A stretch of DNA of 64,000 nucleotides from sequence record MW735835.1, one strand, 5' to 3'. Position numbers and translations under genes: made by a program. Of this stretch, positions 10,423 through 48,267 are shown piece by piece. The DNA comes from Pseudomonas phage pPa_SNUABM_DT01. Below the pieces are notes generated by a model, which ran no database searches, had not been told where the DNA came from, and saw only the letters and a program-made list of their open reading frames with translations. Each line of letters starts with the position of its first letter. Position 1 is the stretch's first letter.

Positions 10423-10482
10423 CGGCTTCTTCCCGTATTGCATTGACTACAACCGCTGTGCCATTCACAAGGACACAAATTG

Positions 10483-11904
10483 ATGATTCCGCAGAACTTG
10501 CTCGCTCTTAACGAGAACTTCATGACCCCGACCGACGACGTGTATCACGGCCTGATCGAGGACGTGCTCACCAACGGCAACTACAAGGGTGACCGTACCG
10601 GTACCGGCACCTTCGCCGTCGTGGGCCGTATGGCTCGTTACAACCTGATGAACGGCCGTAGCCCTCGACCGACCACCAAGGCCATGAGCGACAACCCCGA
10701 ACGCGAACTGTTGTGGTTCCGCAATGGTTCGTCTTCCATCAAAGAGCTACGTGACCAGAAAATCGGCATCTGGAACAGCTGGTTGATGCCTGGCTCGGCC
10801 AAGTACCGCCCGATGACCGTGGAAGAGATGAAACCCGGTATCATCAAGCATTACAAAGAGCAGGGTTACGACGACGTCGAGTTCGCTCCATATGCTGAAG
10901 GCGATGAAGACGTCACCGGTAAGTGGTTCACCGAGACCGGCATCAATCTCAACCCGAATGAAAAGACGCCCAAGGTGCGCACGGTAGGTTATGCTGGCAC
11001 GGCTGATCTGGCTGATTTCTACGCATGGCTATTGAGCATGAAAGCTCAAGTGCTGGTCGATGGTGATATCGGTCCTGGTGGCTACGGTCCTCAATGGCGC
11101 CACTGGCAGGACACTCAGCTCATCGACGAGAGCGAACTGCCAGCATACCAAGCTCAAGGTTACCAGCACGTCATCGACGTGCGTGACAGCGAAGCCTTCT
11201 ATGGCAAGGTTGTGGTACACCGTGAGATCGACCAGCTGGCCAATGCGATCAAGCTGCTCCGTGAGGACCCGAACAGTCGGCGCATCATCGTGACTGCCTG
11301 GAACCCGGCACTGACCTGGAAAGCCGCTCTGCCTCCGTGCCACCTGTACTTCCAGTTCATCTCCCACGAGCTGACCTTGGAGCAGCGTTACATCATCGCC
11401 AAGGACCGTATGCTGCTCGAGAAGTACGACATCGCTCGTCATGAACAGCAAACCGGCATGATGGACTGCGCCCTGCGCACCTGGAACGAATACGACATCC
11501 AGATCGACCGTCGTCACAAGACCGATGAAGAACTGCATGTCGTGATGGATCAGTTGCAGATCCCTCGCCGTGGCCTGTACGGCTTCGTTCTGCTGCGTTC
11601 CAACGACCTCGGCCTGGGACAGCCGTTCAACGTCGCTCAGTACGCCAGCCTGACTCACATGGTCGCCCAGTGTGTCGGCATGGCTCCGCTCGAACTGGTC
11701 TGGACTGCCGTGGATGCTCACGTGTATTCCAACCACGTCGAGGCACTGCGCGAACAGCTGGAACTCGAGTCCAAGGAATGTATCCCGCGGATCGTTCTGA
11801 CCAAAGGCATCACCGACATCGACGCGTTCACCATCTCCGACATCAAGATCATTGACCACGAGATGCACAAGGCGCTGTCGGACAAGATGCCAGTCGCCGT
11901 CTGA
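10483..11904 (+). CDS. thyA: thymidylate-synthase-family enzyme (ThyA fold, 473 aa, two large insertions); could be ThyA or a dUMP hydroxymethylase
   Basis: 'DRTGTGT', 'RRIIVTAWNP', catalytic 'LPPCHLYFQF', 'RSNDLGLG', 'DAHVYSNH' all collinear with E. coli ThyA (264 aa), but ~95 aa extra after 'IWNSW' and ~55 aa extra after 'FQF'. Confidence 0.8.
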   Translation: MIPQNLLALNENFMTPTDDVYHGLIEDVLTNGNYKGDRTGTGTFAVVGRMARYNLMNGRSPRPTTKAMSDNPERELLWFRNGSSSIKELRDQKIGIWNSWLMPGSAKYRPMTVEEMKPGIIKHYKEQGYDDVEFAPYAEGDEDVTGKWFTETGINLNPNEKTPKVRTVGYAGTADLADFYAWLLSMKAQVLVDGDIGPGGYGPQWRHWQDTQLIDESELPAYQAQGYQHVIDVRDSEAFYGKVVVHREIDQLANAIKLLREDPNSRRIIVTAWNPALTWKAALPPCHLYFQFISHELTLEQRYIIAKDRMLLEKYDIARHEQQTGMMDCALRTWNEYDIQIDRRHKTDEELHVVMDQLQIPRRGLYGFVLLRSNDLGLGQPFNVAQYASLTHMVAQCVGMAPLELVWTAVDAHVYSNHVEALREQLELESKECIPRIVLTKGITDIDAFTISDIKIIDHEMHKALSDKMPVAV

Positions 11905-14547: not shown

Positions 14548-15858
14548 ATGGAAGTATTTCTGGTAGGTGGGTTTGTCCGGGATACACTTCTCGGACTCTC
14601 GCCGAACGATCGCGACTATGTCGTGGTTGGAGAAAGCCCAGAAAGCATGCTGGCGAAGGGGTTCACCCAAGTGGGTGGCCACTTCCCGGTATTCTTGCAT
14701 CCCGAAACCCAAGAAGAATATGCCCTGGCCCGGCAAGAGGTGAGCACCGGTGACGGTTACGGTGACTTCACCTATAACTGGGACGGGGTGTCGCTCGAGA
14801 TGGACTTGAGCCGTCGTGATTTGACGATCAATGCCATGGCGATTGACACCAACGGTGAAGTGGTAGACCTGTTTGGAGGGGTAGCTGACCTCAACGCACG
14901 ACTACTGCGGCACGTAGGTCCTGCATTCGTTGAAGACCCGTTACGGATCATGCGTGTGGCTCGTCTGTCTGCGGTATTGGGCTTCGACATCGCGTACGAA
15001 ACCATGGCCCTCATGAAAGAAATGGTGGCCAAGGGCATGCTTCAGGCGTTACCGGGCGAACGCGTGTGGAAAGAGACTGAGAAGGCTCTGCTCAGCAAAG
15101 AACCGAGTCGGTATTTCAAGGTGCTGAAGGAATGCGGTGCTCTCCATGTCTGGTTCCCTGAACTGGACTTGATGGATCGTGTCCCGCAGCGTCCTGATTA
15201 CCACGCTGAAGGCGATGTCTGGGTGCACACCCTGATGGTGCTGGATGAATCGGTGCCGCTGACCATGCATTTGGATCGTGAGCGTTGCTTGCGAGTGCGT
15301 TACGCCACGTTGACGCATGACTTCGGTAAGCTGGGCACACCGCAGAAGCTCTTGTGGGCAGATGACGGTGAGTTGCTGGGCAAACACCATGGTCATGAGG
15401 ACCCAGATCGCTTTGGTCCGTTCCTGATGGCCTTCTCCAACCGGATTAAGGTGCCTACTCGCCTGCGTAAGTTCGCTCATGTCGTGTCGGTCATTCATCA
15501 GAATGTCCACTCGATCAAGAAGATGTCTCCTAAGGGCCTGGTGTCGTTGTTCGACAAGGTCGGCGGTAACCGTTCCATTCGCGATGATGAATACTACCTG
15601 GAAGATCTCTCGATCGCCTGCTTGGCTGATAGCCTCGGTAGGCTGATAACCAAAGAAGATGGGTCGCTGGCTCAGATTCCCGGGTATCCTCAAGGCCAGT
15701 ACTTCATCGACACCATGACACTCATCAACAACGTCGATGCTGGCGAGATCATGCAGAAAGAACTGGCCAAACGATGGCCGGTGAAGAAAGCACTGGAGAG
15801 CGTCCGGTCTGCTCGCAGTAAGGCAGTCGCTCCCTACGTCCGATCCCATAAATCTTAG
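14548..15858 (+). CDS. cca: multifunctional CCA-adding tRNA nucleotidyltransferase with HD-domain phosphohydrolase
   Basis: 'LVGGFVRDTLLG..DRDYVVVG', 'RRDLTINAMA', 'FPVFLHP..EEYALAR', HD motifs 'HTLMVL..THDFGK'; near full-length collinearity with E. coli Cca. Confidence 0.9.
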   Translation: MEVFLVGGFVRDTLLGLSPNDRDYVVVGESPESMLAKGFTQVGGHFPVFLHPETQEEYALARQEVSTGDGYGDFTYNWDGVSLEMDLSRRDLTINAMAIDTNGEVVDLFGGVADLNARLLRHVGPAFVEDPLRIMRVARLSAVLGFDIAYETMALMKEMVAKGMLQALPGERVWKETEKALLSKEPSRYFKVLKECGALHVWFPELDLMDRVPQRPDYHAEGDVWVHTLMVLDESVPLTMHLDRERCLRVRYATLTHDFGKLGTPQKLLWADDGELLGKHHGHEDPDRFGPFLMAFSNRIKVPTRLRKFAHVVSVIHQNVHSIKKMSPKGLVSLFDKVGGNRSIRDDEYYLEDLSIACLADSLGRLITKEDGSLAQIPGYPQGQYFIDTMTLINNVDAGEIMQKELAKRWPVKKALESVRSARSKAVAPYVRSHKS

Positions 15859-31636: not shown

Positions 31637-31993
31637 GTGAGCAAATCTGAGGAACCGATTGTCGTCATCAAATGGCTACACTCGTCCTCGGGCCGCAGTA
31701 AACGCAGCGAGATCGTCAACCAAGGATGCTTCGTGCTCGAGCACGAAGCTACCGGGCGCTTCTATCTGGGCCAGAGCGACAACGTCAGCAAAGACGTCGA
31801 TAAACAACTTTCCCAACTGGCAAACGGCAAGCACCCGAACAAGATCCTGAACGTCCTCTACGAGAAGGACAACGAGATCCGGGTGTTCGAATATCCACAG
31901 AAGGCAAAGAAGAAACGCGTAACCCTCATGCGTGAGCTGATTGAGAAGGCCGGCTACCTTTGCCTAAATCCAAGAGATGTCCGCAATGTATAA
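31637..31993 (+). CDS. small GIY-YIG-like domain protein (118 aa)
   Basis: 'GCFVLEHEATGRFYLGQSDNVSKDV' has the G-x-(Y/F)...Y-(I/L)-G spacing of GIY-YIG modules; GTG start. Confidence 0.4.
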   Translation: MSKSEEPIVVIKWLHSSSGRSKRSEIVNQGCFVLEHEATGRFYLGQSDNVSKDVDKQLSQLANGKHPNKILNVLYEKDNEIRVFEYPQKAKKKRVTLMRELIEKAGYLCLNPRDVRNV

Positions 31994-32492
31994 AGACCTG
32001 AAGCTTCCCAAGCTGGTGCAGCAGATTCTCCTGGTCACCCGTGACCACATTCTTTCTTCGTCCGCCAAGTGCCACATGTTGGTGCTGGCGACTCCCAAGT
32101 TCCTCAAGGACAATCCGCACCTGAAGCCGAGCGCGTTCGAACACGCGATCTTCGGCCCGGTCGTGGTCCTGAACATCACCCCGCAAGCGATCGGCCCGAT
32201 CACCTTGGGTGATGACTTCATCAGCTTCGAAGCCCGCTACAGTGGTGCCCTGCTGACCAACTTCGTGACCATGGGTGACATCGTTGGCTTGTATTCGCCA
32301 GAAGAAGGCTCGGTCATGATCGACGTCGGTGTGGTCAACCTCATCGGTGATACCGGCATGGGTGACGGCAGTGTCGGCATGATTGCTGCCCGTCCGCTGA
32401 ACAGCTACGAGCCGGCAGAATCCGAAGCCCAGGTCCAAACCCAACCCGTTCAACCGCCGCGTGAGCGCCCTAGCCTGAAGGTAGTCAAATGA
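31977..32492 (+). CDS. SspB-like ClpXP adaptor protein
   Basis: 'VVLNITPQAIGPITLGDDFISFEARYSGALLTNFVTMGDIVGLYSPEEGSVMI' parallels E. coli SspB 'IVLNIAPRAVGNLELANDEVRFNARFGGIPRQVSVPLAAVLAIYARENGAGTMF'; C-terminus 'QPPRERPSLKVVK' matches the SspB ClpX-binding tail '...RGGRPALRVVK'. Confidence 0.7.
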   Translation: MSAMYKDLKLPKLVQQILLVTRDHILSSSAKCHMLVLATPKFLKDNPHLKPSAFEHAIFGPVVVLNITPQAIGPITLGDDFISFEARYSGALLTNFVTMGDIVGLYSPEEGSVMIDVGVVNLIGDTGMGDGSVGMIAARPLNSYEPAESEAQVQTQPVQPPRERPSLKVVK

Positions 32493-32920: not shown

Positions 32921-34915
32921 ATGGACAACCGCATCGAAGCCCTGCGGGCAGAGATCAGTCGTCTGAACGATCTCTACTACAACGAAGGGGATTCCGGCGT
33001 CGAAGATGCCGTGTACGATTCCCTGAAGAAGGAACTGCGGGAACTCGAAGGTGAAACCGACGACCCGCTGTCCCCTCTGAACATCATCGGGGCTCCCGTC
33101 GCCGGGGGCTTCGATAAAGTCAAGCACCTGACCCCCATGCAGAGCCTGGGCAACGTGTATAACGAGACTGAACTCACCGACTGGTGTGACAATCTCGAGT
33201 ATCCGGCCTGCGCTCAGATGGAACTCAAGCATGACGGCCTGGCCATTGACCTGCTGTACGACAAGACTCACCTGAAGTATGCCGCTACCCGCGGCGACGG
33301 TGAAGTCGGTGATGATATCACCGATAACGCCATTTACTTCGAGGGTGTGCCAGAGCAGCTGCGTGGTTTCAGCGGTAAAGTTGAAATCCGTGGTGAAGCT
33401 GTCATCCCGCACAAGCACTTCAAGCGTGTTTGTGAACTGCGTGAGTCGCTGGGCAAGAAAGTCTACGCCAACCCCCGCAACATGGTGGCTGGACTGGCTC
33501 GCAAAAAGGAAGGAGCGGAGCTGCAAGGCATGGGCATCCGCTTCATCGCCTACGATGCAGTCATTCACACCGACGAAGGCCCGCTTTCGGTGCCGATGTC
33601 GTACTTCCAGCAGGATCTTCAGAGCCAGTTCTACATCTCTCTGCCGGTCTGGGAGGGTTTGACCAGCGATATCGTCAACATCGTCGAAACAATCGACGAC
33701 GTAGCCGAGACTCGTGAGACCCTAGGGCATGACATTGACGGCTTGGTACTGAAATTGATCAAGCCTGAAGACCGCAAAGCCCTCGGCAGCCGTTCTACCA
33801 GCCCGCGATGGGCCGTGGCGTACAAGTTCGAAGCCCAGACCACGACCTCAGTGCTGCAAAGCGTCGAATTGCAGGTCGGTCGTACCGGGGCCATCACCCC
33901 AGTGGCCAAGATCAAGCCCGTCAAGCTCTGCGGTGTGACCATCAGCAGCGTGACGCTTCACAATTTCGAAGAAATCGAGCGGTTGGACCTCCGTCTGCTC
34001 GACACGGTTGTCGTTTCCCGTCGTGGCGACGTCATCCCGAAGATCGAAAGCGTGATCACGGCTCTGCGTACTGACGAACACGGCATCATCCCCATTCCCA
34101 CGGAGTGTCCGTGCTGTGGGGCGCCGTTGAGCAAGAAGGAAGTGGGCAAAGAAGAAGGTGTGAAGCTGTACTGCACCAACTCCGTCACCTGTCCTGCTCA
34201 GGTCATCAACAAAATGGCCTACTTTGTCAGCCGCGATGGCATCGACGTGAAGAACCTCGGCCCAGCCGCCGTCGAATCCTTGATTGTGTCGGGTTCGTTG
34301 GGGTCGTTCAGCTCGTTGTTCCACCTGACCGAGTCGGATTTCTACAACGCTGGCATCGGGGAAGCCATGACCGACAAGATCATGGCCAGTATCGAACGCT
34401 GCAAGAAGCTGCCGTTCAAGAAAGTCCTGCGTGCTGTCGGTATCCCGGAAGTCGGCGACTCCACTGCTCGTGATTTGGCGTTGTTCTACTCGTCGTTCAA
34501 GGAGTTGTTCGAAGCCAAGGCTGAAGACATTGAACGAATCCCGGACATCGGCCCTGCGGTCTCTGCAAGCCTCGCTAAGGCGTTCGAATCCAATGGCGCC
34601 GATTACCTGGCCTTGGATAAGATCCTCACCTACGAGGCTGATACGGTCCTTAAAGCCGAGATTCAGGACCTCGCCGGCAAAACTGTGGTGGTGAGTGGCA
34701 GTGACTTCGATGGTAAGTCGCGCAAGGAGATGGAAGCCGACGTGATTTCGCGTGGTGCTAAGCTCTCCAAGTCCGTCAGCAAGAAAACCGACATCCTCTT
34801 CGCAGGTATTGGTGCTGGCCCAGACAAAGTCAAGACCGCCAAAGAGCTGGGGTTCGTCGTTGATGGCATCATGATGACCAATCCCAATTCCCTCACTCGC
34901 ATTCTTCCTCTGTAA
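32921..34915 (+). CDS. ligA: NAD-dependent DNA ligase
   Basis: Adenylation motif 'ELKHDGLAI', Zn-finger 'CPCCGAPL...CTNSVTCPAQ', C-terminal BRCT-like 'GKTVVVSGS...'; 664 aa. Confidence 0.9.
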   Translation: MDNRIEALRAEISRLNDLYYNEGDSGVEDAVYDSLKKELRELEGETDDPLSPLNIIGAPVAGGFDKVKHLTPMQSLGNVYNETELTDWCDNLEYPACAQMELKHDGLAIDLLYDKTHLKYAATRGDGEVGDDITDNAIYFEGVPEQLRGFSGKVEIRGEAVIPHKHFKRVCELRESLGKKVYANPRNMVAGLARKKEGAELQGMGIRFIAYDAVIHTDEGPLSVPMSYFQQDLQSQFYISLPVWEGLTSDIVNIVETIDDVAETRETLGHDIDGLVLKLIKPEDRKALGSRSTSPRWAVAYKFEAQTTTSVLQSVELQVGRTGAITPVAKIKPVKLCGVTISSVTLHNFEEIERLDLRLLDTVVVSRRGDVIPKIESVITALRTDEHGIIPIPTECPCCGAPLSKKEVGKEEGVKLYCTNSVTCPAQVINKMAYFVSRDGIDVKNLGPAAVESLIVSGSLGSFSSLFHLTESDFYNAGIGEAMTDKIMASIERCKKLPFKKVLRAVGIPEVGDSTARDLALFYSSFKELFEAKAEDIERIPDIGPAVSASLAKAFESNGADYLALDKILTYEADTVLKAEIQDLAGKTVVVSGSDFDGKSRKEMEADVISRGAKLSKSVSKKTDILFAGIGAGPDKVKTAKELGFVVDGIMMTNPNSLTRILPL

Positions 34916-41373: not shown

Positions 41374-43245
41374 GTGACTGAAGCAATCCAATACCACGAA
41401 GCCCTGGACGAACTGCGCGCAGCCTCCGAGGCTCTCCTGAAAGATGGCGCCGGTGTCATCTTCACCACCCAGTGCCGTAAGAAGCTGGGCGAACAATATC
41501 TGCGCGCGATGGCCAACGCGGCCAAAGAGCTGAACATGGACGTCAACGAGGTGGTCACTCACTTCCGTTGCTCCACCTGCTCCCGCTTCATGGCCCGTGT
41601 GGGTCACCTGGTGATCTCCAACCCGGAAAACCCCTTCGCCGTTCGTTCTGTGTTCTGGAACCCGGCAGTCGTCACCGACCCGCTGATGAAACTGGTCGTG
41701 GCCGAGATGAAGCGTTACGTCGAGAGCGCTCGTATCCAGAACGTCTACAACGTGGACGGCCCGTACAAGCAGTACACCGAGGTGACCAACCTGGGCGGTA
41801 AAGAGTTCCGCCACTACTTCATCCCGCAGGCCGTGCTGACCCACCGCGTCCCGGTGCTGAACAACCCGATCAGCATCGCCGACTTCTCCAAGAAGTTCGA
41901 CCAGGTCGCAGCCCTGATCCGTTTCACCGGTGAAGTGTCGCTGGACACCGTGATGTACGTCGACGGCCTGTTCCAGGCGCGCATGATCGAACACGTCGGC
42001 GCGTCCGAGAAGACCATGGGTGATCTGAAGGCCCTGTTGGCCAGCCTGCAAGTGGCCAAGTCCACCTCGGACTACGGCCTGGCTCAGGGTGACTACAACA
42101 AGGAAACCATTCTGGTCAACACCATCTGGATGGCAGCCCTGCGCAACATGAACATGCTGTCGATCCGTGGTTCGATCCTCGGCAAGCTGCTGGCCTTCAC
42201 CCACGATGCCCTGGCCAAGGGCGCTCGTGAAGCGCAACTGGACGGCATCAAGAAGTTCTGGGCCACCCAGACCGACGGCCTGCACTACCAGCGCACCACC
42301 CGTGAGGCTAGCGAGTCGCAGCTCTCCAAGACCGCTCGTTTCCTGGAAGAAGGCGGCTGGAACGAGTCGCTGAAGCAGGTCGAAGCGGCCGAACTGGACC
42401 TGCCGGTACTCTGGCAAGCCAAGGAAGCCTGGACGTTCGAAGAAGGCCACAAAGCCATCTCCAACGACTTCGCTGCCTTCGCGGCCAAGAAGGGCGTCGA
42501 GCTGAACGATCCGACTCAACCGAAACCCATCGACCTCGGCTACTTCATCAACGAAGTCCTGCCGTTTGTCGAATCCATGGGCTTCGTGGCTACCGGCCTG
42601 ACCTTCATGCCGATCCTGGTGAACCGTATGGCCAACCTGGAAGCCAAGCCGATCTTCGTCTACGACACCCTCGAGAACCGCGCTCCGTTCATCCCGTGGC
42701 GTTACGACCGTAACTACTCGGTGCGTGAGCTGAACCCGCTGGCCAGCCTGACCAAGAACGGCGAGACCGTCCTGCCGGTGCTGTCGATCACCTCGGATTC
42801 CACCATTGGTTACAAGGGCCGTCGTCCTCAGGACAACGACATCTTCTTCCAGTTCGGTGGCATCTCGATGCCGCAAGCGCCGCGCCCGGCACTCTTCGCC
42901 GAGTCCATGGACAAGCAGTTCTACGAGCACCGTCGTGCGATCGAGGACTACTGCCGCAACACCATCGTACCGCGTTCGGAAACCCAGCAGTCGATCTCGA
43001 TGGTCTTCGGCCCGCGTCATCCGCAGGACCACTCGAATGTGTTCGTGCTCCTGCACGTGCGTTTCGGTGAAGAAGGCAAGGCCCGTTTCGGTGCGACCAA
43101 TGTGACCTACCGCTTCGATGCGCGCGGTTACACCGTCCAGCCGGACCTCAGCAAGTTCGAAGTGATTCGTGACCGGACCAAGGTCGCCGTCACCGAGCCG
43201 ACTGAAGCGCCGAAAGTGCCCACGGCAGAAGTCCGCGCACTGTAA
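41374..43245 (+). CDS. large hypothetical protein (623 aa)
   Basis: GTG start after 'gaagaaggaagaacgacGTG'; Cys cluster 'FRCSTCSRF'; no recognised catalytic motif. Confidence 0.6.
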   Translation: MTEAIQYHEALDELRAASEALLKDGAGVIFTTQCRKKLGEQYLRAMANAAKELNMDVNEVVTHFRCSTCSRFMARVGHLVISNPENPFAVRSVFWNPAVVTDPLMKLVVAEMKRYVESARIQNVYNVDGPYKQYTEVTNLGGKEFRHYFIPQAVLTHRVPVLNNPISIADFSKKFDQVAALIRFTGEVSLDTVMYVDGLFQARMIEHVGASEKTMGDLKALLASLQVAKSTSDYGLAQGDYNKETILVNTIWMAALRNMNMLSIRGSILGKLLAFTHDALAKGAREAQLDGIKKFWATQTDGLHYQRTTREASESQLSKTARFLEEGGWNESLKQVEAAELDLPVLWQAKEAWTFEEGHKAISNDFAAFAAKKGVELNDPTQPKPIDLGYFINEVLPFVESMGFVATGLTFMPILVNRMANLEAKPIFVYDTLENRAPFIPWRYDRNYSVRELNPLASLTKNGETVLPVLSITSDSTIGYKGRRPQDNDIFFQFGGISMPQAPRPALFAESMDKQFYEHRRAIEDYCRNTIVPRSETQQSISMVFGPRHPQDHSNVFVLLHVRFGEEGKARFGATNVTYRFDARGYTVQPDLSKFEVIRDRTKVAVTEPTEAPKVPTAEVRAL

Positions 43246-43290
43246 GTCCCTTGGGGGTGGACCTTCCACCCCCTTTCCATTCAAGATTCA

Positions 43291-43314
43291 TTCACTGATA
43301 CATCATGTCAGTGA
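43291..43314 (+). promoter_or_regulatory. promoter-like box variant 'TTCACTGATACATCATGTCAGTGA'
   Basis: Matches the conserved element at 14 of 18 core positions; 22 nt before GTG 43337. Confidence 0.45.
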
Positions 43315-43336
43315 ACATCCACTAGGAGTAACACCT

Positions 43337-44464
43337 GTGCTCAAGCCCACCCCGCTCGTACGTACCAAGCGCGATGAAATGACCTTCGGCATCCTGCCGG
43401 AATACGTTCCCCAGGACCTGGTCGGCAACATGAAAGGCGATGCTCGTCTGTACAGCTCCGACGAGATCTACAACCTGATGATGAAGATGGACGAAGGCTT
43501 CGTCGGCATGCGTCGTTCGGTCATCGACAAGACCGAAGCTGTACGTCAGCTGATCCTCTACGCCCTGGCCACCAAGCTGATCGGCGGCGTGCTGCACTAC
43601 GCTGTGTACCAGCGTGCTGCTGGCGCTGAAGCCCAGCTGAAAGACGGCTTCTCCATCGGCTTCGGCGGTCACGTCGAGAAGAAGGACCTGTGCAGCCACG
43701 TCTCGCTGGACGAACACGGCAACGAAGTGGAAGTGGAAGAAGTCCCGTCCTCCTTCTACTCCACCATGCGCTCCGGCATCCGTGAGCTGCAAGAAGAAGT
43801 GCTCTTCTACCACCCGAGCGACGTTGAGCGTCCGTTCACCCAGGAAGAGATCCTCAACCACATCGGCGCTGGCTTCGGCTACCGTCAGTTCGCGCTGGTG
43901 GAAGTGGAGAAGCTCTCCGAAGAACAGCAAGTCGCTTCCAAGTACAACCACGCCCACTTCGCCGTCATCGACGCCGATATCCCGGGTGCTGGCGCTCTAG
44001 TCGTCGAGAAGGACGTGTTCTTCGCCGGTGACGCATTCCGCGAACTGTTCCAGCAAGAACCGATCCGTCGTGTGCAGGGCGCCCAACTGGGCAGCAACGT
44101 CGTACCGTTCGCCTTCATCAGCGACCGTGACGTCGAAGGCAAGCCGGGCTTCGTCGGTAACACCCACCTGGGTCTGGCAGCCATCCTGCGCGTTGAAGGC
44201 GACATCTCCTTCAAGGTGCTGGAAGAGAAGTACACCACCATTGGTTGGAAGACCAAGGAAGAACTCCTCGAACTGCGCTCGCGCTGCGAACCGTGGACCC
44301 AGTACCTGCTGGAGCACATCGACGCCATCGAACTGATCGCGCGCAACGAGTGCTTCACCCAGCCGCCGCAAATGCAGGCTGCGCCGACCGTGGAAGAGCT
44401 GGCTGCCAAGCAAGCTGAAATCCCGGCCGAAGAAGGCCTGGTGGGCGACGAAACCGTCCACTAA
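43337..44464 (+). CDS. hypothetical protein (375 aa) with a possible interrupted Nudix-like fold
   Basis: GTG 43337 with AGGAG RBS; 'FSIGFGGHVE...(25-aa insert)...RSGIRELQEEVLF' resembles a split G-x5-E-x7-REUxEExGU box. Confidence 0.5.
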   Translation: MLKPTPLVRTKRDEMTFGILPEYVPQDLVGNMKGDARLYSSDEIYNLMMKMDEGFVGMRRSVIDKTEAVRQLILYALATKLIGGVLHYAVYQRAAGAEAQLKDGFSIGFGGHVEKKDLCSHVSLDEHGNEVEVEEVPSSFYSTMRSGIRELQEEVLFYHPSDVERPFTQEEILNHIGAGFGYRQFALVEVEKLSEEQQVASKYNHAHFAVIDADIPGAGALVVEKDVFFAGDAFRELFQQEPIRRVQGAQLGSNVVPFAFISDRDVEGKPGFVGNTHLGLAAILRVEGDISFKVLEEKYTTIGWKTKEELLELRSRCEPWTQYLLEHIDAIELIARNECFTQPPQMQAAPTVEELAAKQAEIPAEEGLVGDETVH

Positions 44465-44475
44465 GCAGTAACAAA

Positions 44476-44500
44476 GAGGTGAGGGGTCCGCCCTCACCTC
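44476..44500 (+). terminator. hairpin gaggtgaggg-gtccg-ccctcacctc
   Basis: 10-bp perfect stem after the stop. Confidence 0.45.
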
Positions 44501-44526
44501 TCTGCCGTCTCGCACATTCACCTGAT

Positions 44527-44545
44527 CTATCAAGGAATCATCATG
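44527..44545 (+). promoter_or_regulatory. initiation box 'TCTATCAAGGAATCATCATG'
   Basis: Copy of the conserved box; the ATG is the start of gene 44543. Confidence 0.45.
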
Positions 44546-45472
44546 TCTGACAAGAAACCCGCTACTGTTTTCATTGTTCATCGCAACGACGCAGTCCTCC
44601 CTGACGAGGTGCGTAAGAATTACAACATCTTTGAGATGTCTGAGAAGTGGAGCCTTTCTGCGCTGACGCCGGAGAACTTCGCGCTCATCAATCCCGAAGA
44701 CAAGGTCGTTGGTGTCGGTTACACCAAAGACGCCGAAGATGCATTCGGGTTCATCGACCCCGATTACGAGAAACTGTCGATGGACGCTGCCAAGCGTTTC
44801 TACGCTCGGCCCACTGTTGCCCATTTCTTGGGTCTGCTTCTGGGTTGGTCGATGGTCAACGAAGAGCTGGAGTCTTACGACGACGGTGATGGTGCCTCCT
44901 GGACCCGTGTCGATGACGAATGCTGGTACGGCGATATCGACTCTGTGATCCTGAACCTCGTCATGCCGAAGGATGGCGGCGGTGCCTGTGGCTGCGGTAG
45001 CAACTACGCCGCTGTGTTGTCGCTGGACAAGTTCCTGCGCACCCAGATGAACCACCCGTTCATCTCCAAGGATGAAGATGACATCCGCAAGGGTCATCTC
45101 GAAGACACCGTTTATCGTGAAGACCTGCTCGGCCACGCCTTCTGGTTCATTGCCTACGTCATGGACGCGGCGGGGATGACCGAACACGGCTCCGGCATTC
45201 GTCATGGCTGGCTGCAACTCAAAGGCGTCCTGTTGGCGCTGTTGATCGGCGAATCTATCCGGATGAGCACCTCTCAGGATGAGGAAGAGCCGGTCGACCA
45301 AGAAGTGCATGACGAATTCAACCCGACTAAAGAAAAGGCCATGGAAGCTGCCATCCATCTGGATAAAGACCTTCAGATGTTGATGGCTGGAACCTGGGTA
45401 CCCGATCGCCATTCCTGCGAAGCAGCACTGGATAACGTCGGGGTCGTCCGTCGGTTCATCGAATCCAAGTAA
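44543..45472 (+). CDS. hypothetical protein (309 aa)
   Basis: ORF track. Confidence 0.55.
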   Translation: MSDKKPATVFIVHRNDAVLPDEVRKNYNIFEMSEKWSLSALTPENFALINPEDKVVGVGYTKDAEDAFGFIDPDYEKLSMDAAKRFYARPTVAHFLGLLLGWSMVNEELESYDDGDGASWTRVDDECWYGDIDSVILNLVMPKDGGGACGCGSNYAAVLSLDKFLRTQMNHPFISKDEDDIRKGHLEDTVYREDLLGHAFWFIAYVMDAAGMTEHGSGIRHGWLQLKGVLLALLIGESIRMSTSQDEEEPVDQEVHDEFNPTKEKAMEAAIHLDKDLQMLMAGTWVPDRHSCEAALDNVGVVRRFIESK

Positions 45473-45493
45473 CTCGCACATCCACCTCCGAAC

Positions 45494-45516
45494 ATTCATC
45501 AAGGAATTTCACCATG
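45494..45516 (+). promoter_or_regulatory. initiation box 'CATTCATCAAGGAATTTCACCATG'
   Basis: Copy of the conserved box before the AAA+ gene. Confidence 0.45.
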
Positions 45517-46743
45517 CCTGCACAAGTCAACATCAACAACTACGACAACCACCTCGTGATCACCGCCACCGACCAGAGCAATCTGGTGGATCATGTCCCG
45601 GCGATGGTCTACAAGGCAGTGTTGCGTCCGTACGGCATCGTGCTGATCAAGGACCGTCCGACCTTCACCCTTCCGCAACTGCGCTTCGGTCGCCATAAGC
45701 GTTTCTTCACCCAGATCAGTAACAGCTATGACCGCGATGGCCGTGGCACTGGCGTGCTGTTGGCTGGTGAAAAGGGCACCGGTAAGTCGCTGATGGCGGA
45801 AGAACTGGGCGCCTGGATGATCAAGCAGGACCTGCCGGTGATCATGGTCAGCGAACCCATGTCGGCTGAAGACCTGTCGGTCGTCATTAAGGCTGTCGGG
45901 CCGTGCATGGTGCTCTTCGACGAGTTCGGTAAGGTGTATCACGATGTCCACGAGCGTGAACGCCTGCTGACCCTGTTCTCGGACACCTCGTTCGTCGGTG
46001 TGATGTTCGTCATCACGGGCAACGCTGCCAGTGAGTTCTCCGAGTTCCTGGTTCACCGCCCTCAGCGGTTCCTCTACTGCATCAACTACCACAGTGGTGT
46101 GGACGAGGAGACCATGGAAGACATCCTTACCACCATGCAGGTCAAGCCGGAGATGCATGAGCTGTTCCGCGAGTACCGGGTCGATAGCCGTACCCTGAAC
46201 ATCGACTCGCTCATGTGCGTCGTGCGTCAGTCGGCGGACTGCAAGACCCCGGAGGAGCTTGTAGAGCGTTGCGAGATCCTCAACGTACCGGAACTTCCTA
46301 AGAAGCGCTGGTACATCAAGGATGTCGTTCAGCTCAGCACGGACACCGAGGAAGTCAAGCCGTTTGGCTGGGACTTCAACGCGAACCGTGTAGGCTTCAT
46401 CGGCCTGATCGAAGGACGTGTGATGGAAGCCCGCCATATTCGCGATCCAGAGGGCCGTCGTACGTCTGTCGAGTACCAAGTCTCTGCTGACAACAGCGAC
46501 GTCAAGATCGTCGTAGAAGGCATGCGCACTTTCGAGGTAACCCTCACTTACGGTTACATGCGCCCATGCTTTGATGCTGTGAAGCATGGTGAGCCGCACC
46601 CTGAGGCGGTTCTTACCAGAGAAAACAACCTCATGGTCCCTTCACGGGCAGGTGGTTTTGGTACGTTCCATTCCGAGGCCACCGTGGATAGCGGCTCGCC
46701 GCGTGAACCGTGGCGAGCCGTTCAACCGGCAGGCCGTCATTAA
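45514..46743 (+). CDS. AAA+ ATPase (409 aa)
   Basis: Walker A 'GEKGTGKS', Walker B 'MVLFDEFG', sensor-1-like 'VITGN'. Confidence 0.6.
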   Translation: MPAQVNINNYDNHLVITATDQSNLVDHVPAMVYKAVLRPYGIVLIKDRPTFTLPQLRFGRHKRFFTQISNSYDRDGRGTGVLLAGEKGTGKSLMAEELGAWMIKQDLPVIMVSEPMSAEDLSVVIKAVGPCMVLFDEFGKVYHDVHERERLLTLFSDTSFVGVMFVITGNAASEFSEFLVHRPQRFLYCINYHSGVDEETMEDILTTMQVKPEMHELFREYRVDSRTLNIDSLMCVVRQSADCKTPEELVERCEILNVPELPKKRWYIKDVVQLSTDTEEVKPFGWDFNANRVGFIGLIEGRVMEARHIRDPEGRRTSVEYQVSADNSDVKIVVEGMRTFEVTLTYGYMRPCFDAVKHGEPHPEAVLTRENNLMVPSRAGGFGTFHSEATVDSGSPREPWRAVQPAGRH

Positions 46744-46782
46744 TCCCTGTTCCACCCAACCCAAGGACTAAGGAGTCCAGCA

Positions 46783-47100
46783 ATGCAAGTGAAAAACCTG
46801 AGCAACATCGCTGAAGCCCTGAAAGCCGTCTCCAAAGAAGGCAAGGTCACGTTGGTCATCGACACCCTGAAGAAGCGCGACAGCGCAGCTGTGGGCAAGG
46901 TCGGTGACGTGTACTTCCAGCTGTCCTTCGACTCGTTGGCTGACGGTATCAAAGCTGGTCGTTCCGTGGAACTGAACGTGGAAACCGGCGAGGCTGTACT
47001 GCTCGACGTTCCTGTCCAGCCAGTGACCAAGGCCGTAGAGCCTACTTCTCGTCCTGGCCGCTCCTGCTCCTCCCGCATCAGCAACAAGGACATGATGTAA
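46783..47100 (+). CDS. hypothetical protein (105 aa)
   Basis: 'ctaaggagtccagcaATG'. Confidence 0.5.
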   Translation: MQVKNLSNIAEALKAVSKEGKVTLVIDTLKKRDSAAVGKVGDVYFQLSFDSLADGIKAGRSVELNVETGEAVLLDVPVQPVTKAVEPTSRPGRSCSSRISNKDMM

Positions 47101-47116
47101 CCACCCCGTTCAGAGA

Positions 47117-47147
47117 GGAGGGCTTCGGCCCTCTTTCTCTTTTGTTT
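47117..47147 (+). terminator. hairpin gagggc-ttcg-gccctc + TTTCTCTTTTGTTTG
   Basis: GC stem plus T-rich tail. Confidence 0.6.
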
Positions 47148-47158
47148 GCGAGGAAAGC

Positions 47159-47689
47159 ATGACCACGATCGTTTATCATCAAGGCGCCATCTACGCGGAT
47201 CAGGTCCACGTACGTGCTGGCACACCCTGCACCAGCCATCTGGCTGTTAAAATCTTCACCTCTGCCGATAAGCAGTTCGCCTACGGCGTGAGCGGTCGAG
47301 CCATTGCCCCGAAGGAGCGCGAATCTCTCGAACAGATTCTTCGCAAGGGCCTAGAGAAGCTTCTTGTAGCGAACATGGGCGATTCTATCATGACTCCCAT
47401 GATCTTCTCTGAAGAGGAAATAGAACGTCTCAGCGATTTCGGTGGTTGGGTCATCATGACCAAGACCAGGGCATTCATTTGGCTGTCGCGGATGATCCGC
47501 GAGGCCACAGGAGCAACCATGGGCGCCGGTACCGGTTGCTGGCTGGTGTGCGGAATGATTTACGGCGGCATGAAGCCGGAGAAAGCCATTCTTAACACAG
47601 GTGACTTGGATTGCTGCACTGGTGGCGGTGTGAACAAGATCAGTGCTAAATCCCTGAAACCCTTCGTCATCAAAGGAGAGTCCAAATGA
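47159..47689 (+). CDS. HslV-like N-terminal-nucleophile (proteasome beta-type) hydrolase (176 aa)
   Basis: 'MTTIVYHQGAIYADQ' matches HslV '[20 protein letters not shown]' (Thr1 nucleophile after Met removal); same length as HslV (176 aa). Confidence 0.45.
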   Translation: MTTIVYHQGAIYADQVHVRAGTPCTSHLAVKIFTSADKQFAYGVSGRAIAPKERESLEQILRKGLEKLLVANMGDSIMTPMIFSEEEIERLSDFGGWVIMTKTRAFIWLSRMIREATGATMGAGTGCWLVCGMIYGGMKPEKAILNTGDLDCCTGGGVNKISAKSLKPFVIKGESK

Positions 47690-48267
47690 CCCTCGCAGTC
47701 TGGCTCGACGACGAAGTCGGCCTTCAAGCCCAGGCCAACCCGATGGAAGGTGTGTACTTCCGCCTACCGGAAGACAACTTCGATCGTTGCTTCTCCAAGT
47801 ATGGTTTCGTCTACTCCCTCAAGGAGTTCGAGATCAACTACCCGGCCGTGGTGGAAAATCGCCTCCCGCCAATCCCACGCCACATCAACAATGCGTCCAG
47901 TCAGCTGGTCTACATGCTGATCGATCATTATGGAGAAGTCTGGCAGATCGACTATTGGTCTGATCGCGAAGGCCGCGTCAATGCTCCTCAAATGTCCATC
48001 TTCTCCATGCCGGCCGGAAAGGTGAAGACCCTGGTAGCGTGCACGGATGAAGGCGATTTGGAGTTGCTCACTGGTTTCGTCATGGCCAACCGAAACAAAG
48101 ACGAAATCAACCAGTTCATCTTCGATAAGAAGCTCGGTCACGGCAAACGCCTTACGTGGCTGAGCAAAAAGGACATCGTCGAACGTCTCAATAAGGAGTT
48201 CCCGCTTGAGAAAGATCCCGGTGAAAGTAATCCCTTCGCCCAAGCCATCGCCACCCCCTCGCCCTAA
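47686..48267 (+). CDS. hypothetical protein (193 aa)
   Basis: ATGA overlap with the Ntn-hydrolase gene. Confidence 0.5.
   Translation: MTLAVWLDDEVGLQAQANPMEGVYFRLPEDNFDRCFSKYGFVYSLKEFEINYPAVVENRLPPIPRHINNASSQLVYMLIDHYGEVWQIDYWSDREGRVNAPQMSIFSMPAGKVKTLVACTDEGDLELLTGFVMANRNKDEINQFIFDKKLGHGKRLTWLSKKDIVERLNKEFPLEKDPGESNPFAQAIATPSP

Follow-up and report, generated by a model that had tools for sequence, protein, structure and literature searches.

The 64,000-nucleotide stretch of the Pseudomonas phage pPa_SNUABM_DT01 genome analyzed here (sequence record MW735835.1; hereafter the window) encodes at 47159-47689 on the + strand a 176-amino-acid (aa) protein, called the protease below, that belongs to the proteasome-beta/HslV superfamily and is very probably an N-terminal nucleophile (Ntn) peptidase. 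Its constant partner is not the AAA ATPase encoded upstream at 45514-46743 but p193, the 193-aa product of the gene that directly follows it. The reading we favor, and hold to be somewhat probable as a whole, is that the protease and p193 form a two-gene unit with a nearby AAA ATPase as an accessory, and that together they make up a phage-encoded regulated protease. A first-pass annotation of the window, made from the letters alone, had proposed the protease and the ATPase as a pair and missed the invariant partner p193. The open reading frames (ORFs) it named all exist on the + strand at the positions it gave, the 176-aa gene does start with MTTIV, and the ATPase gene does lie two genes upstream.

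The start codon of the protease gene is supported by a GAGGA sequence 4 nt 5' of the ATG, and with this start the threonine is residue 2 of the protein. The N-terminus MTTIV is identical to that of E. coli HslV. When 1.84 billion representative proteins are searched exhaustively by profile, 119 representative relatives emerge at E<=1e-3, nearly all of them 160-220 aa long and aligned from residue 1, and 119 of 125 family proteins (a set that includes the closest relatives of the query) begin with M-T or M-S. Because this start is kept across the family, it is not coincidental in the window protein. The only invariant columns in an alignment of 121 family sequences are M1, D14, K31 and G124, while G46 is at least 90% conserved. 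When E. coli HslV (the sequence used being 174/175 identical to 1e94) is aligned to the family hidden Markov model (HMM), T2 corresponds to Thr1, D14 to Asp17, K31 to Lys33, G46 to Gly48, and G124-T125-G126 to Gly123-Ser124-Gly125. The profile built from the 121 sequences reaches HslV chains in PDB, namely 4hnz (4e-5), 3ty6 (1e-4), and 2z3a and 1yyf (both 2e-4), in a range extending to 1e-3, with weaker matches to the 20S beta3 subunit and BPH. Searches of PDB with the single sequence (phmmer) or with a 7-sequence profile give no match.

AlphaFold2, run on the 121-sequence alignment, models the protease monomer with a predicted local distance difference test (pLDDT) score of 95.8 and a predicted template modeling score of 0.90; a model from the 7-sequence alignment only, at pLDDT 57, was not used. 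Foldseek compares the model to HslV and to beta5 with probability 1.0. HslV is the top structural neighbor, followed by archaeal 20S beta (score 13.3), BPH (13.2), eukaryotic beta subunits (11-12.7), Anbu (12.0), connectase (9.9) and alpha subunits (8-9.7), and 40 viral clusters in BFVD share the fold at E<1e-3. The protease has the four-layer alpha-beta-beta-alpha Ntn architecture, a Thr directly after a Met whose removal is predicted, and the counterparts of Asp17, Lys33, the oxyanion Gly and the Gly-Ser/Thr-Gly loop. Membership of the proteasome-beta/HslV superfamily, the T1-type Ntn hydrolases of MEROPS, is thus established. Since the proteasome-beta fold and the equivalents of Thr1, Asp17 and Lys33 are both present, the earlier suggestion of an HslV-like Ntn hydrolase with a Thr1 nucleophile stands.

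Membership of HslV proper is a different matter, and is not established, because the protein is just 13-16% identical to HslV, is not recognized by Pfam PF00227, and has a different gene context. It has no match to any Pfam or NCBIfam model, the NCBIfam HslV models included; PDB HslV is reached only by the family profile, and PF00227 matches just one of the 121 relatives (E 0.004). Among PHROG families, phrog_1040 ("peptidase HslV family") does recognize the protease, at E 1e-14. A deposited protein that is 100% identical, encoded on a 265,520-bp contig of this jumbo phage, is named "putative protease" in GenBank (Pseudomonas phage pPa_SNUABM_DT01). The word "protease" is absent from the main text of the paper on the phage, which mentions an ATPase only once, for SbcC (PMC8541153). 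A tblastn search, with 16 diverse protease members concatenated as the query, finds the family in 23 phage records, mainly from Erwinia (the Erwinia Agricanvirus phages, AH06, PCH45, SPLA10). The same collection searched by tblastn with the 176-aa protein alone or with the family consensus gives no match, and divergent sub-alignments used as queries for related loci return one locus or none. By megablast, the region has no nucleotide match in the collection (50,697 records, the source phage not included). The protease family is a distinct one, with most of its members in jumbo-phage genomes and metagenomic contigs.

In the window, the protease gene lies within an array of seven tightly packed + strand genes (41374-48267, from the ORF list), with the following features.

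41374-43245, + strand: p623, 623 aa; matches phrog_1735 (E 8e-32), DUF8224-like
43169-44464, + strand: p431, 431 aa as an ORF; about 43340-44464 and about 374 aa if counted from the first internal ATG
44543-45472, + strand: p309, 309 aa
45514-46743, + strand: AAA ATPase, 409 aa
46783-47100, + strand: p105, 105 aa
47115-47136, + strand: terminator-like hairpin, from consensus scan, sequence and fold
47150-47154, + strand: Shine-Dalgarno-like GAGGA, 4 nt 5' of the protease ATG
47159-47689, + strand: protease, 176 aa, beginning MTTIVYHQ
47686-48267, + strand: p193, 193 aa; its start overlaps the protease stop by 4 bases

Related loci (numbered L below) were taken from IMG/VR, from assemblies with exact family members, and from annotated phages, and all of their ORFs were scanned with our own HMMs. 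A p193-family ORF adjoins the protease in 26 of 29 protease loci. It sits immediately 3' of the protease gene, usually overlapping it or a few bases away, with the exception of L096, in which a weak match lies upstream. Among the loci examined, p193 was never found without the protease. The three protease loci that lack a called p193 are L095, whose contig ends at the protease stop, PCH45 and L097. The downstream ORFs of PCH45 and L097 (200-219 aa) were considered as candidates and are too divergent to call (hhalign 5-19%). In Erwinia phage RAY, gp56 and gp57 are the protease and p193 pair, gp57 matching the p193 family with an hhalign probability of 97%. From this distribution, the partnership is probably obligate. 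By profile search, p193 has no match in Pfam, PHROG, NCBIfam or PDB, and only nine relatives of it occur in a database of 5.8 billion proteins. On the question of whether p193 is an alpha-like paralogue of the protease, comparison of the two families gives hhalign probabilities of only 10-19%, along 40-47 co-linear columns of the C-terminal part.

A gene for a protein of about 100 aa usually precedes the protease, with positional equivalents of p105 in L007, L008, L026, L092, RAY (gp55) and PCH45 (coordinates, for example, are 7600-7935 in L003, 9626-9949 in L007, 2893-3177 in L092, and 7661-7954 in L098, which is RAY gp55). Homology among these proteins is weak outside close relatives; p105 has no match in Pfam, PHROG or NCBIfam, and is 34% identical to the L003 protein (E 3e-20). 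An ETG strand and a C-terminal P-x-x-(G/S)-C-x-S tail recur in several of them, for which substrate, tag or adaptor would be candidate roles.

The ATPase at 45514-46743 consists of an N-terminal domain of about 75 aa, a core at about 77-190 plus a lid, and a variable C-terminal region of about 130 aa. It matches Pfam AAA (PF00004, E 3e-5) and phrog_2376 "ATPase" (E 3e-50), and carries Walker A (GEKGTGKS), Walker B (VLFDEF), sensor-1 (N170) and R182-P-Q-R185 motifs. Across seven aligned homologues, from jumbo phages, phAPEC8 and Bacillus phage WH1, the residues G80, K87, G88, G90, K91, F135-D136-E137-F138, N170, R182 and R185 are invariant. The best PDB matches of the family profile, over residues 77-190, are NSF, p97/VCP/Cdc48 D2, NVL and VAT (E 3e-11 to 1e-7), which places the ATPase in the clade that includes the proteasomal ATPases rather than in the HslU/ClpX/Lon clade. 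By sequence it is a member of the classic AAA clade, which also holds FtsH, PAN, katanin and Bcs1, and is nearest to p97/Cdc48 D2; the first-pass annotation, which saw Walker A and B motifs in a 409-aa AAA protein and judged it not obviously HslU, was right on this point.

The case for a functional link between ATPase and protease comes from gene neighborhoods. The protease loci were grouped so that proteases of different lineages are less than 50% identical, which gives about 12 lineages. In 8 of the 12 (the window, L003-6, L007, L008-10, L017/18/23, L021/22, L026/27 and L092), an AAA gene of the window family (A3) lies 0.1-2.7 kb from the protease. These eight lineages show three gene orders, with differing intervening genes. 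The order AAA, p105, protease, p193 is found in the window and in L007-L010; the order p105, protease, p193, two other genes, AAA is found in L003-L006; and in L026/27 and L092 a gene for a protein of about 100 aa is followed by the protease, p193, a DHH/DHHA1-like gene, one other gene, and the AAA gene. In L017/18/23 and L021/22, the protease and p193 genes lie 1.5-2.7 kb upstream of the AAA gene. In a ninth lineage, L094, the pair is followed 0.9 kb downstream by a protein with Bcs1_N and AAA domains that does not belong to the window family. A neighborhood that survives rearrangement, and in which a Bcs1-like AAA replaces the usual one in L094, favors a functional link of the protease to AAA-type ATPases.

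Two of these loci deserve a further remark. The Bcs1-like AAA of L094 (1692-3087; BCS1_N E 1.5e-18, AAA E 2.8e-13) is encoded in two overlapping ORFs, and could be either frameshifted or a genuinely split gene. The DHH/DHHA1-like (phosphoesterase-type) protein that lies between p193 and the AAA gene is 279-293 aa long (L026 8393-9232; L092 4440-5321).

The strongest alternative is that protease and p193 act without ATP, as do BPH and Anbu, while the AAA protein has an unrelated function shared with large myoviruses, possibly together with p623, so that its proximity to the protease is inherited synteny. We consider this unlikely as a whole, and still the most serious competitor. Several observations weigh against the favored reading or speak for this one. 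Among the best 80 IMG/VR loci for the AAA family, with the protease sought within 10 kb, 68 lack it and 12 have it. The closest AAA relative (L012, 61% identity, on a 254-kb contig) keeps p431 next to the AAA gene, and p623, p309, the protease and p193 were not found there. A tblastn search places members of the AAA family in 389 phage records, drawn from Phapecoctavirus and from large phages of Bacillus, Staphylococcus, Enterococcus and Lactococcus; almost all of these records belong to phage groups without a detected protease member, and in phAPEC8 and Bacillus phage WH1 no protease gene lies within 5 kb of the AAA gene. Conversely, RAY-like Agricanvirus phages, PCH45 and L091 have the protease and no P-loop gene within 8-10 kb. 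Because lineages 1-8 are related jumbo phages, part of the AAA linkage may itself be inherited synteny. In Bacillus phage WH1, the AAA gene is paired with a p623 homologue (phrog_1735; L002 2857-4929, gp182) directly upstream of it.

The AAA protein itself, examined by sequence, adds to these objections. In an alignment to p97 and NSF, no aromatic-hydrophobic-Gly pore-1 loop is found in the family: the position reads SEPMS in the window, DSCIP in L003, TQPYT in phAPEC8 and TKAYP in WH1, and the phage profile has no counterpart of the "WF" of p97 D2, which aligns as an insertion. No HbYX or HslU-like docking tail is found at the C-termini, which are variable and charged (QPAGRH in the window; GQQLN, GDDVY and QEDD in relatives). 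A C-terminal (M/V)LS(S/T)KH motif ("LSSKH") is conserved in the relatives L003, L004, L007, L008 and L010, and is absent from the window protein because that protein stops about 20 residues sooner (AGRH); no frameshifted continuation is visible past its stop (46690-46743 region).

A further objection is found in the DNA between the genes. The earlier description of ATPase and protease as belonging to one operon holds as far as the tight same-strand array is concerned, and is qualified by the terminator-like hairpin that lies between the AAA/p105 block and the protease/p193 block. This hairpin, located at 47115-47136 between the p105 and protease genes, consists of GAGGAGGGC-UUCG-GCCCUCUUU, with a 9-bp stem, followed by UUUUGUUU; the T-run directly 3' of it is TTTTGTTT. 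Because its folding z-score is a modest -1.3, the hairpin is suggestive, and the two blocks may be separate or attenuated transcription units. A second GC-rich hairpin with a T-run lies in the gap between p623 and p431 (43253-43273, + strand), and both are possible intrinsic terminators or attenuators within what appears to be a single gene array. A sigma-70 promoter scan gives no sites, the sigma-70 consensus being uninformative for a jumbo phage.

An ATP-independent pair would also fit the finding of Fuchs, Alva and Lupas (2021), who report neither an AAA+ interactor nor informative gene context for the novel proteasome homologues; for BPH, Anbu, PPH, AAH and others no unfoldase is known (PMC8665760). 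Against it stand the persistence of linkage through three gene orders and turnover of the intervening genes, the unrelated Bcs1-like AAA beside the pair in L094, and the L003-6 loci, in which the AAA gene stays near the protease although the locus lacks p623, p431 and p309. What remains of the first proposal of an ATPase/protease pair is its recurrence in related jumbo phages, in three arrangements; it is weakened by AAA loci free of protease, protease loci free of AAA, and the missing pore loop and tail. Linkage recurs, and the 68 of 80 loci, the missing pore loop and tail, and the hairpin count against coupling; ATP-dependent coupling is therefore plausible but unproven, and our own estimate for AAA coupling to the protease is a tentative one that falls short of probable.

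Apart from this question, p623 can be described as a recurrent neighbor of the AAA gene across very distant large phages, including those without the protease. It is present in L007-L010, L018, L021, L026 and L027, and Pfam DUF8224 matches the L093 orthologue. It may be the more ancient partner of the AAA ATPase.

The reading in which protease and p193 form the unit and the AAA protein is accessory can be set out as follows. The 176-aa protein would be a Thr1 peptidase with a complete active site, maturing by loss of Met1, with no propeptide. Threonine at position 2 makes a protein a substrate for methionine aminopeptidase, so that removal of Met should be all that maturation needs. Like its structural neighbors, the protease may be active as a peptidase and assemble as a self-compartmentalizing oligomer. 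The translationally coupled p193 would most likely be a stoichiometric structural or regulatory subunit in physical contact with it. As an energy-dependent accessory, the AAA protein at 45514-46743 is the best candidate; it might contact the complex to deliver, remodel or gate substrates. Together these genes could equip the phage with a regulated protease whose targets during infection would be host or phage proteins.

A stronger form of the same idea, in which protease, p193 and AAA make up a three-component ATP-dependent proteasome-like machine with p193 as an alpha-ring-like or adaptor layer, is unlikely on present evidence. Its model would be the 20S proteasome with PAN, Mpa/ARC or Cdc48/VAT, with which the phage genes share a Thr1 beta-type subunit and a classic-clade AAA carrying an RP(G/Q)R second-region-of-homology motif. 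The differences are substantial. The 20S proteasome has an alpha subunit, and none is recognizable in the phage module, where p193 compares to the protease at the low hhalign values given above. Proteasomal AAA proteins have an HbYX tail and an aromatic pore loop, while the phage protein lacks both, has one ATPase domain, and has unrelated N- and C-terminal regions. If such a machine does exist, phages would have arrived at the 20S-plus-AAA arrangement independently, and the AAA protein would be the first AAA+ partner for an orphan proteasome homologue.

Considerably less probable is the involvement of an HslU-type ATPase, whether the host HslU or a phage homologue encoded outside the window, that would drive the peptidase while the phage replaces or subverts the host HslV core. 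The N-terminus MTTIV shared with E. coli HslV and the top structural match to HslV would suit this, as would Erwinia phage RAY, which has in addition to the protease family member gp56 a bona fide HslU homologue, gp116 (L101 4353-6062), whose AAA_2 domain is split by an I-domain. This gene, however, lies 37 kb from gp56/gp57, and its product is reported in a preprint to localize to the phage nucleus (10.1101/2023.02.24.529968). Within the 64-kb window no HslU homologue was found, the protease is distant from HslV in sequence, and the invariant partner p193 has no HslUV counterpart. The RAY proteins gp117 and gp118 (179 aa each), which adjoin gp116, were examined as possible relatives of the protease or p193 and show no similarity. 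Least probable is a site-specific Ntn enzyme, either a maturation endopeptidase or a connectase-like ligase/transpeptidase, with a dedicated substrate such as the ~100-aa protein or p193. In its favor, the small gene that usually precedes the protease encodes a semi-conserved C-terminal tail, and a compact cassette of two or three genes is reminiscent of enzyme-substrate pairs. Against it, no cleavage or ligation motif was identified, and outside close relatives the ~100-aa proteins show little homology.

For a phage to carry an HslV-like gene is not new in itself, because phage proteasome homologues (PPH and AAH, PMC8665760), the annotated members of PHROG 1040, and the BFVD clusters are already on record, as are two "HslV" genes (ORF1 and ORF116), with no HslU or ATPase partner, in Salmonella phage pSal-SNUABM-04 (PMC7823757). 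Other annotated phage HslV-family proteins occur in Serratia phage Moabite and in Erwinia phage AH06, where the name is "proteasome-like hydrolase"; none of the annotated proteins is characterized, and a p193 partner is mentioned for none. The description of the find as unusual accordingly needs narrowing, from the presence of such a gene in a phage to its neighbors, since the literature searched holds no report of a p193 partner or a conserved AAA neighbor for such proteases. The known systems differ from the phage family in several respects. The HslV of HslUV (ClpQ) works with HslU, an HCLR-clade AAA+ ATPase with an I-domain, while the phage protease adjoins a classic-clade AAA instead. The orphan PPH is about 140 aa long and lacks helix H2, where the phage protease has 176 aa and H2 (a separation made by description). 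For the orphan homologues (BPH, AAH, CPH, PPH), no co-occurring AAA+ interactor and no telling gene context are reported (PMC8665760), while the phage family has p193 and an AAA neighbor.

The neighborhood is thus a first hint, from gene context, of an ATPase partner for an orphan proteasome homologue, and the ATPase in question shares its clade with the ATPases of archaeal and eukaryotic proteasomes and is not of the HslU clade. Should the three proteins cooperate, they would offer a compact system, accessible to experiment, in which to study how AAA motors are recruited by proteolytic cores, and giant phages would be seen to carry a regulated protease of their own, beside an SspB-like ClpX adaptor, with which to reshape the host proteome or disarm defenses. 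Should they not cooperate, an Ntn peptidase with a complete active site and an obligate partner still improves on the labels "hypothetical protein" and "putative protease" in dozens of phage genomes.

The putative adaptor is encoded elsewhere in the window, at 31977-32492 (+ strand, 171 aa), where the first-pass annotation had noticed an SspB-like gene. The gene matches phrog_8945 (E 5e-9) and the NCBIfam ClpXP specificity-enhancing factor at E 2e-11, the latter below equivalog cut-offs; with Pfam SspB the score is 20.9 bits, short of the cut-off of 27. The C-terminus, RPSLKVVK, resembles RPALRVVK, the tail with which E. coli SspB binds ClpX. By this analogy, the sequence suggests a protein that may be able to tether cargo to host ClpX, and the presence of the gene suggests that the phage manipulates host proteolysis. 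Erwinia phage RAY likewise has an SspB homologue, gp039.

Of the remaining genes in the array, p431 belongs to phrog_8902 and contains a Nudix-box-like string (GGHVEKKD...IRELQEEV), with no match in Pfam or NCBIfam. Farther away, a thymidylate-synthase homologue at 10480-11904 is 474 aa long against a profile of 335 positions, which implies a large internal insertion. The window also encodes a NAD-dependent DNA ligase with its full domain set (32921-34915) and a tRNA nucleotidyltransferase (14548-15858), both typical auxiliary functions of jumbo phages.

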